Shown here: positions 730 to 38,268 of the stretch, in pieces
Numbering within the stretch: position 1 is the stretch's first letter
How the letters are laid out: every line of letters starts with the position of its first letter
Source of the DNA: Eledone cirrhosa
Lineage: Eukaryota
Reading direction: 5' to 3'
Assembly (NCBI GenBank): GCA_964016885.1
Contig: OZ024744.1
Location: 119,598,001-119,662,000 of the forward strand
Length of the DNA: 64,000 nt
Made by a program: the position numbers and the translations under genes
Notes under the pieces: model-generated
What the model was told of the DNA's origin: nothing
The model's database searches: none
Seen by the model: only the letters and a program-made list of their open reading frames with translations

Positions 730-1352
730 GGTAAGTATGTATGCATGTATACGTACATACATATATGTATACAGACGTACAGTAGTATGTATATATATAC
801 ATACATGCACACATATATACGTGCACGTATCGGTTTACCGAACATTTATTATAATGCTCGGTTTGTTCGTTTGTAAACAAACAAACAGCCTGAATTACGC
901 CGTACAGTGTTTAGGCAACCACGTCACCTTTTTGTTCAACACTGACACAGGAACGATGTACTAGTTTCAAGCTTATTAGCTATCGTCAGCATCGTATACC
1001 TTCCTGCCAGATGGTTGAACATCTGAAAGTATATACTTTCCTTATGCATATTAACGGCTGAACAGCCTAATTTGCATATCGATTGAGATCAGTCGGCTGG
1101 GCGCACCGAAAACGATAAATGGAATAGAATGAAACGAAATTTCATTTCTCACTCTTAGTACGGCACTTACTTAAATGTAAGTATGTATGTATGTATACGT
1201 ACATACATATATGTATAGAGACGTACAGAAGTATGTATATATATACATACATGCAAATTAGGCTGCTCAGCCGTTAATATGCATAAGGAAAGTATATACT
1301 TTCAGACGTTCAACCATCTGGCAGGAAGGTATACGATGCTGACGATAGCTAA
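730..1352. mobile_element. HHR tandem repeat (retrozyme-like family A): ~1.2 units on - strand plus inverted segment 1251-1352
   Basis: Homologous to 4462-5540 and 31780-32130; 1251-1352 is the reverse complement of ~977-1077. Confidence 0.8.
953..995 (-). ncRNA. Minimal type-I hammerhead ribozyme (family A)
   Basis: - strand: acgatg CTGACGA t agct-aata-agct t GAAA ctag TA catcgt; 6-bp stem I, palindromic loop III. Confidence 0.85.
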
Positions 1353-2988: not shown

Positions 2989-4367
2989 ACCAGGGATATA
3001 TACTATAAACACACAGACACCCATCAATATCTGAATTTAAGTCGTGCCATCCACCTCATACAAAACGCAACATCCCATACTGCCTAGCCAGAAGAATTTG
3101 TACCATTTTAGAAGATATGAATACCAGATACAAACGCCTAACAGAACTGAGAGGATTTTTGCTCAAACAAAAATACCCATCTCTACTTATAGAAAATGGC
3201 ATACAGCGGGCTATAAAAATACCTATACAACTACTTAGGACAACCCAAGGAAGAAGAAACCAAGAACTGGTCATACCATTTATAATGACACACAACCCAT
3301 GTCACCAGAATGTCTTCAACACTACCAAAGAAAACCTACCGATCATTGCTCAAAGTAATGAATTAAAAGGCTTAATCACAGATTGATCTTTGACTCTTAG
3401 ACAGCCGAAAAATTTGAAGCAATATCTAACAAAGGCAAAGTTTGACCTTAACAAAGACCAATCATTCACTGTATCTAAATGCAATGATAGTCGATGCGGC
3501 ACATGTCAATCCATACACGCCGGTCAATATATGAAAACAAAAACTGGAAAAATATTGTGAAGAACTTTATGTCGGTCAAACTGGAAATGCACTATCGGAG
3601 CGTGCACGGGTGCACTGACAGCAAATCAGAGGCCTAAATGTCCGTCAGATACCCCTGAGTAACCATCTAGCAACATGTGGTCAGAAAATATTTATAATAT
3701 TTCAATTCTACAAATTACACAGCCCAATTGAAATCAAGAGAAAAATTAAAGAAAAGAATTTTATTGATAAATTCCAACCCAAGCTAAATGAACAATAATA
3801 ATGCTTAGGGGTATTACTTCTATTATGACTACGCCTACGACCATGTCGACTATCACCACTGACAACAACAACAATAATAATAATAAAAGAGATGTTGATG
3901 GTGATGATTACTAGAAAATGCTATTTTCATCATTTCTAAAAATAGAAAAACAATTGATGCTTTGGATAGGGTCAAATAGAAGTCGTTAGACATACTCAAC
4001 CAACCGTGACGCCTAAACCAATCAGCTTTAGTAATCTAGTGAAACCACACACACCGATTGGTCGAAATACAGTTTGCAAAACTTAGCATTCTGTAGCCCC
4101 TTTTTACTGTATATAAAGCACAGAATGTACCCATCTCATTACAGTTGAAAATTGCAAACTTGACTGTCACCACATATCATGAACCTGAAGATTGCGAAAG
4201 CATGAAAGTACTTGTTCAATTAACACTTAATATTTAATATTCTACGATACTATTTCATTATAATATCATTATAATTGTAAATAAAACGAGTAAATCAGGC
4301 AAAGTTTTAAAGTAAGTGACATAGTCACTACTTTAAAACTCATAGCGAATGGTCTTCAAAATGTTTT
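2989..4367 (+). mobile_element. 5'-truncated, degenerate Penelope-like element (RT thumb, Cys linker, GIY-YIG remnant, pLTR)
   Basis: [13 protein letters not shown]; CNDSRCGTC linker; YVGQTG; HHR at 4180-4218; inverted copy of its 3' end at 2678-2731. Confidence 0.8.
4180..4218 (+). ncRNA. Minimal type-I hammerhead ribozyme
   Basis: tgaac CTGAAGA t tgc-gaaa-gca t GAAA gtac TT gttca. Confidence 0.85.
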
Positions 4368-4376
4368 ATATGTATA

Positions 4377-5634
<1,258 letters not shown>

Positions 5635-28790: not shown

Positions 28791-28881
<91 letters not shown>

Positions 28882-29296
28882 CAAATAACGAAACGAAATT
28901 AAATTTCGTTTCGCTTCTAACTCACTTTTGTATGACTGACGCTTAAACAATTAAGTTAAAGTGTACATCTACATATGTATACGGAAGTATTAGTATGCAT
29001 ATAAATACAGACATGTATACATATGTACATGTACTCAGCTTTTCACTAGACACTTTACAGTGAGTGTCAGCTAGTCTGTATGTAACCACACAGGCGGACC
29101 GGGTTTTAGAGTCATACGAGTTTTCAAGGAAACACATTTCCTCTATTCTCCAGAGGGCCAGACAGGAATATTGGACTAGTTTCGATGTTATTACATCTCA
29201 TCAGCAATATTTACCCATCTTCCGGCTTCTCTGGAGAATTGTAAAAGCAGATATCGTTATATGCTTTTTCTATGAAAATTAGTAGTGGGTAGACTA

Positions 29297-29304
29297 ATTT
29301 GCAT
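29297..29304. promoter_or_regulatory. Octamer ATTTGCAT, once per retrozyme unit (family A example 1070-1077)
   Basis: Perfect consensus conserved in both diverged families, 75-86 nt upstream of the HHR; function inferred. Confidence 0.5.
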
Positions 29305-30861
29305 AGAACGTGAGTCATTGTACGCACCGGTTCAGCGGAAACGATAAAAACAAATAACGAAACGAAATTAAATTTCGTTTCGCTTCTAACTCACTTTTGT
29401 ATGACTGACGCTTAAACAATTAAGTTAAAGTGTACATCTACATATGTATACGGAAGTATTAGTATGCATATAAATACAGACATGTATACATATGTACATG
29501 TACTCAGCTTTTCACTAGACACTTTACAGTGAGTGTCAGCTAGTCTGTATGTAACCACACAGGCGGACCGGGTTTTAGAGTCATACGAGTTTTCAAGGAA
29601 ACACATTTCCTCTATTCTCCAGAGGGCCAGACAGGAATATTGGACTAGTTTCGATGTTATTACATCTCATCAGCAATATTTACCCATCTTCCGGCTTCTC
29701 TGGAGAATTGTAAAAGCAGATATCGTTATATGCTTTTTCTATGAAAATTAGTAGTGGGTAGACTAATTTGCATAGAACGTGAGTCATTGTACGCACCGGT
29801 TCAGCGGAAACGATAAAAACAAATAACGAAACGAAATTAAATTTCGTTTCGCTTCTAACTCACTTTTGTATGACTGACGCTTAAACAATTAAGTTAAAGT
29901 GTACATCTACATATGTATACGGAAGTATTAGTATGCATATAAATACAGACATGTATACATATGTACATGTACTCAGCTTTTCACTAGACACTTTACAGTG
30001 AGTGTCAGCTAGTCTGTATGTAACCACACAGGCGGACCGGGTTTTAGAGTCATACGAGTTTTCAAGGAAACACATTTCCTCTATTCTCCAGAGGGCCAGA
30101 CAGGAATATTGGACTAGTTTCGATGTTATTACATCTCATCAGCAATATTTACCCATCTTCCGGCTTCTCTGGAGAATTGTAAAAGCAGATATCGTTATAT
30201 GCTTTTTCTATGAAAATTAGTAGTGGGTAGACTAATTTGCATAGAACGTGAGTCATTGTACGCACCGGTTCAGCGGAAACGATAAAAACAAATAACGAAA
30301 CGAAATTAAATTTCGTTTCGCTTCTAACTCACTTTTGTATGACTGACGCTTAAACAATTAAGTTAAAGTGTACATCTACATATGTATACGGAAGTATTAG
30401 TATGCATATAAATACAGACATGTATACATATGTACATGTACTCAGCTTTTCACTAGACACTTTACAGTGAGTGTCAGCTAGTCTGTATGTAACCACACAG
30501 GCGGACCGGGTTTTAGAGTCATACGAGTTTTCAAGGAAACACATTTCCTCTATTCTCCAGAGGGCCAGACAGGAATATTGGACTAGTTTCGATGTTATTA
30601 CATCTCATCAGCAATATTTACCCATCTTCCGGCTTCTCTGGAGAATTGTAAAAGCAGATATCGTTATATGCTTTTTCTATAAAAATTAGTAGTGGGTAAA
30701 TTTAATTTCGTTTCGTTATTTGTTTTTATCGTTTCCGCTGAACCGGTGCGTACAATGACTCACGTTCTATGCAAATTAGTCTACCCACTACTAATTTTCA
30801 TAGAAAAAGCATATAACGATATCTGCTTTTACAATTCTCCAGAGAAGCCGGAAGATGGGTA

Positions 30862-30906
30862 AATATTGCTGATGAGATGTAATAACATCGAAACTAGTCC
30901 AATATT
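30862..30906 (+). ncRNA. Minimal type-I hammerhead ribozyme (family B); also 31331-31375 (+) and 29167-29211, 29636-29680, 30105-30149, 30574-30618 (-)
   Basis: aatattg CTGATGA gatgt-aata-acatc GAAA ctag TC caatatt; perfect 7-bp stem I, 5-bp stem II, GUC site. Confidence 0.92.
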
Positions 30907-31590
30907 CCTGTCTGGCCCTCTGGAGAATAGAGGAAATGTGTTTCCTTGAAAACTCGTATGACTCTAAAACCCGGTCCGCCTGTGTGGTTACATACAGACT
31001 AGCTGACACTCACTGTAAAGTGTCTAGTGAAAAGCTGAGTACATGTACATATGTATACATGTCTGTATTTATATGCATACTAATACTTCCGTATACATAT
31101 GTAGATGTACACTTTAACTTAATTGTTTAAGCGTCAGTCATACAAAAGTGAGTTAGAAGCGAAACGAAATTTAATTTCGTTTCGTTATTTGTTTTTATCG
31201 TTTCCGCTGAACCGGTGCGTACAATGACTCACGTTCTATGCAAATTAGTCTACCCACTACTAATTTTCATAGAAAAAGCATATAACGATATCTGCTTTTA
31301 CAATTCTCCAGAGAAGCCGGAAGATGGGTAAATATTGCTGATGAGATGTAATAACATCGAAACTAGTCCAATATTCCTGTCTGGCCCTCTGGAGAATAGA
31401 GGAAATGTGTTTCCTTGAAAACTCGTATGACTCTAAAACCCGGTCCGCCTGTGTGGTTACATACAGACTAGCTGACACTCACTGTAAAGTGTCTAGTGAA
31501 AAGCTGAGTACATGTACATATGTATACATGTCTGTATTTATATGCATACTAATACTTCCGTATACATATGTAGATGTACACTTTAACTTA

Positions 31591-31763
<173 letters not shown>

Positions 31764-31779
31764 GTATATATGTATATAT

Positions 31780-32129
31780 GGAAAAGAAGGAAACGAAATT
31801 TCATTTCTCACTCTTAGTACGCTGATACTTAAATGTAAGTATGTATGTATACGTACATACATATATGCATACAGACGTACACTAGTATGTATATATATAC
31901 ATACATGCACACATATATGTATGTACGTATGGGTTTACCGAACATTTATTTTAATGTTCGGTTTGTTTGTTTCTAAACAAACAAACAGCCCGAATTACGC
32001 CGTACAGTGTTCAGGCAACCATCGTCGCCCTTTTGTTCAACACTGACACAGGAACGATGTACTAGTTTCAAGCTTATTAGCTATCGTCAGCATCGTATAC
32101 CTTTCTGCCAGATGATTGAACGTCTGAAA
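31780..32129 (-). mobile_element. Retrozyme-like family A partial unit with intact HHR at 32054-32096
   Basis: Homology to 730-1250. Confidence 0.85.
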
Positions 32130-32900
32130 TCAAGTTAAATACAGATTATTAATCAATTTGGATAACACGAAACTTATACAGGATAAATGTAAACAATATC
32201 TCCGTAGGACGTATCTAAACGTTTAAATTAATTAAACGGTTTGAAAGCCTGAAGATATTACAGATCTCAAATTCAGGATTTAAAAAGAGGATTCTAAATC
32301 GAACTAAGGTACTTAATCAATCAAGAGATTATGATACTCTTTTAAAGAACAGGTATGCATTTCTTAAGGTGAGGTAGAACATTAAACACAATATCAATAA
32401 GCAATAATAAAAGCATTACAAGAATTATTAATAAAAGTCAATAACTTTTCTCACTCTGTCAATGTTTTTTCCTAATTTTATATGATGCTTGAAATGTTGT
32501 TGCAGATTTATGGAGGCAATTTGAGAATAATTCACTTTTTTTTTATTAATTAAATTACCATAATTAGCAATTATTAATAGAGTCTCAGTATTGCAAAGAT
32601 TGCAGTTTGGTGAGATGGAATTATTCCGATAAACTTCGCAGTTTCGAAGTTTAGTCCAACAGATTGAGTATTTTATATTTTTCTCTTTTAATTGTGATAA
32701 AGAAGTAGCACATTTCTTATCCGGATTAGAAAAAGAATGTTTATGATTGGAAAATCTGTTTAAAGTTCGATGAAGTTGCACCTATGTAGTTATAGGTCAT
32801 ATTATTATTTGCTTTAATGGTACATTTATATACTAAGTTCTTATCAAGGCAGTTATTTTGCAAAGGGCATTCGGATTTCCTTCTACAGTTACAGTCCAAT
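32130..32900 (-). mobile_element. Naiad-type PLE 3' fragment (GIY-YIG plus 3'UTR), degenerate
   Basis: DCNCRRKSECPLQNNC, YIGATS, RFSNHKHSF, CNLCNTE. Confidence 0.8.
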
Positions 32901-37769: not shown

Positions 37770-38030
37770 ATATCACCTTGATCACCTTGACCGACCAGTC
37801 TGTCAGGCGCCAGTCGACGCCGCTGCTCACAGCACGTCGTTCTGTTTTAGCCATAAGATAACGCCATCCTACTAGCTGGGCGGGCAGGACGGTACTCATT
37901 TCTACAGCTGAGTAAACTGGAGCAACGTGAAATAAAGTGTCTTGCTCAAGGAAACAACACATCACCCGGTCCGAGAATTGAACTCACAACCTTTCGATTG
38001 CAAGCCCAATGCTCTAACCACTAAGCCAAC
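37770..38030 (-). mobile_element. tRNA-derived SINE, same family as 26609-26740
   Basis: - strand tggcttagtggttagag ... gagttcaattctc, CORE-like block, short tandem tail. Confidence 0.8.
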
Positions 38031-38034
38031 TTTG

Positions 38035-38268
38035 TGTGATTTACTCGTTTTATTTACAATCCTTTAAAATATATATAATGGTATTATAATGAAATAGTAT
38101 GATAGAATATTAAATTCTAAGTGTTAATTGAACAAATACTTTCATGCTTTCGCAATCTTCAGGTTCATGATATGTGGTGACAGTCGAGTTTGCAATTTTC
38201 AACTGTCAGTTGAAAATTGCAAACTCGACTGTCACCACATATCATGAACCTGAAGAATGCGAAAGCAT
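38035..38268. mobile_element. Fold-back pLTR (family of 4140-4300) with HHR at 38129-38167 (-)
   Basis: Palindrome 38144-38268 centred on 38206. Confidence 0.8.

Follow-up and report, generated by a model that had tools for sequence, protein, structure and literature searches.

The hammerhead-bearing repeats in this stretch of Eledone cirrhosa DNA probably carry, in each complete unit, a compact internal promoter composed of an octamer and a TATA word, with a predicted transcription start just before the ribozyme; we would give this reading a probability of about 0.6. The observations behind it are the two words themselves, their spacing, which is fixed within each family, the match to the U6-class promoters of the host, the hammerhead fold downstream, and the anatomy of the insertions. 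The repeats are retrozymes of a known kind and the idea of an internal promoter is already known. The source of the abundant transcription of animal retrozymes is largely unaddressed in the consulted portions of the literature, in which internal promoters are reported for single cases, newt and schistosome. If the reading is true, it would add a third promoter design for animal retrozymes, together with a precise prediction of the start site.

The window, which is the whole 64,000-nt stretch that was analysed, contains two retrozyme families, A and B, whose units are 430-470 bp long (Table 1). The hammerheads in it were called from the core pattern plus stem pairing, and Rfam at gathering thresholds reports no hammerhead in the 64,000 nt. 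Each unit has one type I hammerhead, and the units are short, low in GC, arranged in tandem, and found on many contigs. These properties (hammerhead, short tandem, low GC, dispersal) are similar to those of the metazoan non-LTR retrozymes, described in the available text of Cervera and de la Pena 2020 (PMC7229834) as short low-GC tandems with one minimal type I hammerhead and no protein gene. A single hammerhead pattern has 16,324 exact matches in the 3.0-Gb genome, compared to none for the reversed control. The copies of family B are 99-100% identical over many contigs. Between A and B, 292 of 486 alignment columns are identical (~60%), and the longest word common to both is TATGCAAATTAG, followed by 11- and 10-nt words of the 3′ end and then by 9 nt of the hammerhead.

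The insertions show the traits of the Penelope type, namely a (TA)n target, partial tandems, 5′ truncation, an inverted copy, and two ends that differ by an extension. In the accessible part of a study of Penelope-like elements (PMC8557442), the insertions have such an anatomy with an extension of 30-40 bp, whereas the extension between the two ends is ~60-70 nt here. The 3′ ends of family A cluster at unit positions 408-410 and 341-352, mostly against (TA)n, and head-to-head insertions often hold one 3′ end of each preferred class. The favoured 3′ end of the insertions falls in the T5 run that follows the hairpin common to A and B (Table 1), ~40 nt before the next octamer. A reading of these discrete 3′ ends as the product of a Pol III terminator was dropped, and they are not counted as such, because the second preferred end lies inside the unit and because priming of the Penelope type could explain both. 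Animal retrozymes have been proposed to be non-autonomous derivatives of Penelope in Li, Clavereau and Pollet 2026 (bioRxiv 10.64898/2026.07.22.740005).

Table 1. Retrozyme insertions and candidate promoter features in the window (positions counted from its first letter).
Feature	Position	Strand	Remarks
Family B retrozyme array	28875..30698	−	3.9 units × 469 bp; 3′ end against (TA)n
TATGCAAATTAG	29294..29305	−	octamer core 29297-29304; matches the −77 element of host U6, U6atac, and MRP; also 5′ arm of a predicted RNA hairpin
Inverted imperfect octamer copy	29271..29282	−	hairpin 3′ arm, or weaker second site on the other strand
TATA-like CATATAA	29257..29263	−	41 nt after the A of ATGCAAAT
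Predicted transcription start	29229..29234	−	~30 nt past the TATA-like word; placed by U6-class geometry
TGAGTCA	29311..29317	+	family B only
Type I hammerhead, family B	29168..29210	−	stem I ATATTG/CAATAT, core CTGATGA, stem II with AATA loop, GAAA; stem III minimal, palindromic; predicted cut after C at 29174
Hairpin common to families A and B	29344..29381	−	followed by a T5 run
Further octamer words of the family B array	29763-29774, 30232-30243	−	within 28875..30698
Inverted head-to-head family B array	30698..31598	+	1.9 units; terminates in (TA)n
Octamer words of the inverted array	30768-30779, 31237-31248	+	hammerhead cores at 30869 and 31338
Family A insertion	731..1352	−	octamer word 1067-1078; TATATA 1030-1035; hammerhead core 959-989
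Inverted piece in the family A insertion	1251-1352		begins with the octamer
Family A array with inverted piece	4453..5540	−	octamer words 4778-4789 and 5219-5230; hammerheads at 5111-5141 (core intact) and ~4670-4700 (GAAA substitution)
5′-truncated family A copy	31780..32130	−	hammerhead core 32060-32090; without promoter block

The octamer, written ATTTGCAT, occurs in the repeats at 1070, 4781, 5222, 29297, 29766, and 30235 on the (+) strand and at 1251, 30769, and 31238 on the (−) strand, and these exact matches bear out the positions given for both families in the initial annotation. The type I hammerheads lie downstream of it on the strand reading ATGCAAAT. From the end of the octamer to the CTGA core there are 92 nt in B and 80 nt in A; measured to the start of stem I, the distances are 86 and 75 nt, which reproduces the earlier estimate of 75-86 nt. 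The octamer had also been said to be present in every unit, and this holds for the complete units but not for the fourth B unit (30282-30698), which an inversion cuts before the octamer, nor for the A copy with its hammerhead at 32060-32090, which is truncated before it. The full 12-mer occurs eight times in the window on the ribozyme strand. Octamer matches in the window number 12 against 5.92 expected, and at least 12 were reached in two of 100 shuffles; this count proves little by itself since a single repeat accounts for nine of the 12.

The conservation of the octamer was examined in 57 family A loci chosen by hammerhead alone, with one vote per locus, of which 47-48 cover the octamer site. 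Only four of 379 octamer letters (1.1%) depart from the majority, compared to 7.5% for the median 8-mer window outside the hammerhead and the TA-rich part, so that the octamer ranks fourth among 304 such windows and stands above most of the unit. TATATA departs from the majority at eight of 312 letters, and unit positions 49-88 and 119-260 vary at 10-12%. An AT-rich block of family A, CATTATAATAAAT, ranks above the octamer. The alignment thus indicates that the octamer is constrained, though not uniquely. A long subfamily of A has 4,813 genome copies with a perfect octamer at the exact distance. A long family A tandem array of at least 35 units (G000:C1:51772506-51793523) shows TATATA changed to TTTATA and an altered hairpin 3′ arm, and the octamer is intact among the units listed, as the search demanded.

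The upstream regions of the U1, U2, U4, U5, U6, U6atac, RNase P, and RNase MRP genes of the host were used for comparison. All five independent promoters of the U6 class (three U6 loci, the best U6atac match, and MRP) have TATG(C/G)(A/T)AAT(T/G)AG at −76 to −78 and TATA at −30, 46-48 nt beyond the octamer word. The 15 promoters of U1, U2, U4, and U5 have in common an AATCAG-type word at −54 to −57, and the octamer occurs within 400 nt in one of 14 distinct U1, U2, and U5 promoters, at −399. It could be deduced from this comparison that the octamer is here the proximal element of the U6 class and not a distal element of the U1/U2 class, and the two snRNA classes of the species appear to have distinct proximal words. 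The two words, AATCAGT in U1, U2, U4, and U5 and TATGCAAAT(T/G)AG at −77 in U6, U6atac, and MRP, have a common AAT-N-AG core; in U1, U2, U4, and U5, AATCAGT lies at about −55 and AATTAAAT near −90. A distal TTACCTCCCTT-like word, which sits at about −265 to −290 in the host type 3 promoters, is found in five of five U1 and three of three U6 loci, in one of three U2 loci by the strict pattern, in none of six U5 loci, and at RNase P, and was not found upstream of U6atac. Among 14 dispersed U6 copies that were fetched, none has the octamer element in the last 120 nt before the gene, and five other U6atac matches are without it; one U6atac copy has a reversed octamer that comes from a neighbouring repeat. 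The dispersed U6 copies and the other U6atac matches are read as retrocopies, partly because the octamer element is missing. As a by-product, the snRNA promoter elements of the species are defined, including U6 promoters usable for guide-RNA expression.

Against a matrix built from the five U6-class sites, the retrozyme word scores 18.6 bits, compared to 13.5-17.7 bits for the leave-one-out host sites and 12.7 bits for the best site in the 15 Pol II snRNA promoters; none of 300 shuffles per family reaches the retrozyme score. POU2 factors likewise prefer TATGCAAAT(T/G)AG as their site, so the 12-letter match points to a shared binding word and not to descent from U6. The TATA word is GTATATA in A and C (the latter a further family, described below) and GCATATAA in B. 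It lies 42 nt from the octamer in A and 41 nt in B, versus 46-48 nt in the U6 class, a spacing that is found outside the window in family C. Among 86 hammerheads examined, 59 are accompanied at the expected distance by TATGCAAAT with at most one mismatch, and 52 of these have a TATA-like word exactly 41 or 42 nt further on, the other seven giving no match to the pattern; the remaining 27 hammerheads are mostly 5′-truncated. The distance from octamer to hammerhead varies (80, 88, and 100 nt) while that from octamer to TATA is constant within each family (A, 42 nt; B, 41 nt), which indicates that octamer and TATA move as one block. In a subfamily with an 8-nt deletion, the loss falls just past the TATA, and both the TATA and its spacing are kept while the palindrome around the TATA is disrupted.

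Because the octamer varies less than most of the unit and matches an element of the host snRNA promoters, an internal promoter is a good inference. On present evidence, the block would work like a host type 3 promoter. It has in common with the type 3 Pol III promoters (host U6, U6atac, and MRP, and human H1) an octamer element above a TATA at about −30. It differs from them in its spacing of 41-42 nt, in having no distal element (TTACCTCCCTT is absent from A, B, and C), in T-runs before the second ribozyme, and in its place inside a mobile unit that must transcribe the promoter itself; the spacing and the distal element in A and B are the reasons why it is not classed as a host type 3 promoter. 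Among the listed matches, from which 12 of 100 places were omitted as tandem arrays, there are 86 family A copies with genomic 5′ ends, of which 51 are truncated at unit position 47 or beyond; 14 of these end within 69-76, the zone of the predicted start, compared to 9.5 expected, which is no significant clustering (p = 0.08). The limits 69-76 were chosen after an earlier inspection of a first set of loci, six of which recur among those counted.

A genome search for the octamer word with U6-like spacing gave 324 matches, compared to seven for the reversed control. From the first 100 listed, 47 matches outside family A were examined, and 20 extra loci were picked by eye. Of the 47, 33 belong to a third, older, and decayed family, C, in which the spacing is 47 nt in 25 of the 33 copies. 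In the majority sequence of C, the octamer is followed at ~105 nt by a complete type I hammerhead, and a near-intact hammerhead core word is present in 19 of the 33 copies. The hammerhead of family C is independent support since it was not in the query, while the conservation of the octamer and the TATA is not counted because these served as the query. A strict hammerhead descriptor matches three of the 47, compared to none of 1880 shuffles, the low number being due to the decay of the copies; one of the three, L229, represents a fourth family, with a hammerhead and an octamer-TATA spacing of 44 nt. Rfam reports no hammerhead in 20 of the promoter-pattern loci at gathering thresholds, nor in 12 loci at E ≤ 0.05. 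Five further old repeats (L244, L248, L249, L253, and L254) have the octamer word, a TATA word 44-49 nt on, and, by eye, degenerate hammerhead-like words, and they do not match the strict descriptor. In family C, ~150-165 nt past the octamer (e.g., L233 and L263), there is, beyond the hammerhead, a T6 run followed by CAG, which resembles a 3′ splice site and recalls the intron in Penelope terminal repeats.

The main alternative is that the octamer is kept for RNA reasons only, as a hairpin arm or as an RNA-level protein site, with transcription supplied by read-through from neighbouring host transcripts. The folding data lend it some weight: the octamer is paired at a probability of 0.87-1.0 at seven of its eight positions in A and B, whole units fold far better than shuffles (z of −9.5 and −5.5), and the arm opposite the octamer is conserved in A, where ten of 610 letters differ. 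The TATA of A and B is likewise predicted to sit in a hairpin next to the octamer hairpin. However, three states of the facing arm are found (ATATGCAT, ATTTTCAT, and ATGTGCAT), all with a single mismatch, against an octamer that is constant between lineages, and no compensatory change was seen between the two. Family C, moreover, retains the octamer word without a well-paired hairpin, its pairing probabilities ranging from 0.03 to 0.73, and a role in RNA only would leave unexplained the match to the U6 class in sequence, order, and (in C) spacing. We regard this alternative as improbable, at about one chance in five, though it is the strongest competitor. The facing arm could itself be a second, inverted site, with scores of 9.7 and 14.0 bits, and the octamer may have DNA and RNA roles at once.

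A second alternative is that the block is the remnant of a promoter that came from the terminal repeat of an ancestral Penelope-like element or from a U6-type gene, active in C and weak or dead in A and B. The difference in spacing between the decayed family C (47 nt) and the young families (41-42 nt), a slip of half a helical turn, and the absence of the distal element from the units are what such a vestige would predict. Yet A and B are recently amplified, as judged from the near identity of the B copies and the abundance of perfect-octamer copies of long A, and an element that stays invariant through the ~40% divergence between A and B does not behave as a dead one is expected to, which makes this explanation rather unlikely.

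The initial annotation had taken the octamer for the distal element of a snRNA-type promoter with a separate Pol II proximal sequence element (PSE), as in the newt, where the promoter of satellite 2 reportedly consists of a distal octamer and a Pol II PSE. In the corresponding detailed form, the octamer would be a distal enhancer together with an AP-1 site, with the PSE 150-200 nt away, and this is very improbable in spite of the newt precedent, a hammerhead repeat with an internal snRNA promoter used by Pol II (PMC2220036, in its available sections), since the host Pol II PSE matrix has its best sites in A, B, and C on the antisense strand and not above chance (5.2, 5.2, and 8.0 bits, scores matched by 188, 194, and 48 of 300 shuffles), and since the octamer is all but missing from the U1, U2, and U5 promoters of the host. 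The part of the claim that stands is the snRNA-type character, in that the octamer matches the proximal element of U6, U6atac, and MRP; the part that does not is its distal role, because the host octamer is proximal at −77 and paired with a TATA, and both the PSE and the distal word are missing from the units. TGAGTCA, which we take to be the AP-1 consensus, was described as lying beside the octamer, and in family B this is so: it is in the same place in the other four octamer-bearing B units, and 127 of the 131 B-unit matches counted have TGACTCA adjoining the block, although the loci that hold them overlap and are not independent. Neither A nor C, however, has TGA(G/C)TCA, and in a diverged B-like contig from a run of another organism the octamer is unaltered although deletions occur at 29316-29321.

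If the octamer-TATA block is indeed an internal promoter, a POU/Oct-type factor would bind the octamer and TBP the TATA word, and transcription would begin ~30 nt beyond the TATA, at a point some 10-30 nt short of the hammerhead core. The polymerase would then run across the unit and the promoter of the next unit, successive hammerheads would cut the RNA into monomers that hold the promoter sequence, and the reverse transcriptase and endonuclease of a Penelope-like element would copy these monomers into (TA)n. A monomer that bears the promoter requires transcription through T-runs, which are T5 in B, T4-T6 before the next promoter in many A copies, and, in C, T6 at ~20 nt past the predicted cut. 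For the propagating RNA, Pol II would be a somewhat better candidate than Pol III, given the sense-strand T5-T6 runs ahead of the second ribozyme in B and C, and plain Pol III is disfavoured by these T-runs and by the spacing of A and B, which is 5-6 nt short. In insects, the PSEA-TATA distance is held within 1-2 bp (PMC1761439, from the portion available). Human H1, whose promoter has an octamer at −97 to −90, is transcribed by Pol III as well as by Pol II, with the octamer required in either case (PMC7949045), which shows that a single octamer-PSE-TATA promoter can load both polymerases. The spacing series of 41, 42, 44, and 47 nt accordingly bears on how octamer-TATA promoters choose between Pol II and Pol III. 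A more ambitious and quite tentative scenario is that an old radiation of at least four families captured a host U6-class module, retuned the spacing from 47 to 41-42 nt, and exchanged Pol III for a read-through polymerase; each unit would then transcribe the next one and copy its own external-type promoter.

The schistosome repeat is said to have a promoter with tRNA-type A and B boxes. The available text on the schistosome hammerhead satellite/SINE places a Pol III promoter ahead of the ribozyme (PMC6765202 and PMC2220036), and because of that order each unit drives the transcription of its neighbour, which makes tandem copies necessary. The units described here are similar in that the promoter would precede the ribozyme, and differ in that no B-box-like word is common to A and B on the sense strand by eye; A has such a word, again by eye, on its antisense strand, and B has none. 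In the U6 gene of Schistosoma japonicum, the element assigned as PSE starts with GTGCGAATGAG at −71 (PMC5460494, as far as its text is available), a word similar to the host octamer word. The likeness to newt satellite 2 lies in a per-unit promoter with an octamer that resembles a host snRNA type. Compared to the distal octamer and Pol II PSE of the newt, the octamer here is proximal, precedes the predicted start by ~72-77 nt, has a TATA as its partner, and is of the U6 class and not the U1/U2 class. An endogenous promoter is absent from the main-text discussion of PMC7229834, where "promoter" appears twice, both times for T7, and from the available text of bioRxiv 10.64898/2026.07.22.740005, where the word appears 0 times. 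No paper on an octamer-TATA promoter in retrozymes, or on such a promoter in mollusc snRNA genes, was found in a coverage that most subscription papers lie outside.

Several other features of the window and the host loci may be recorded. A broken Penelope-like fragment at 2990-4310 is inserted in (TA)n and bears a type I hammerhead of its own at 4185-4213 (+); a reversed CCAAT word precedes the TATA word found near 4108, and an inverted piece lies near 2660-2745. The Penelope label rests on anatomy because Pfam gives no match in three frames of the broken ORF 3009-3795. The weak tRNA match at 37963-38035 (−), with 35 bits and mismatched stems, is probably a tRNA-derived repeat. Among the host loci, the sole RNase P RNA match (L175, G000:C24:12936134-12936474) has upstream AATCAGT, the Pol II-type and not the U6-type word, and a long T-run at its end. 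In some genes of the tandem U6 cluster on C19 (L067, L068, and L070), an insertion of ~190 nt at the TATA region shifts the octamer-like element to −270. Another very common repeat inserted in (TA)n, also with an inverted piece, occupies 2390-2610 of the window and is likewise present beside L119, L143, L178, and L234.
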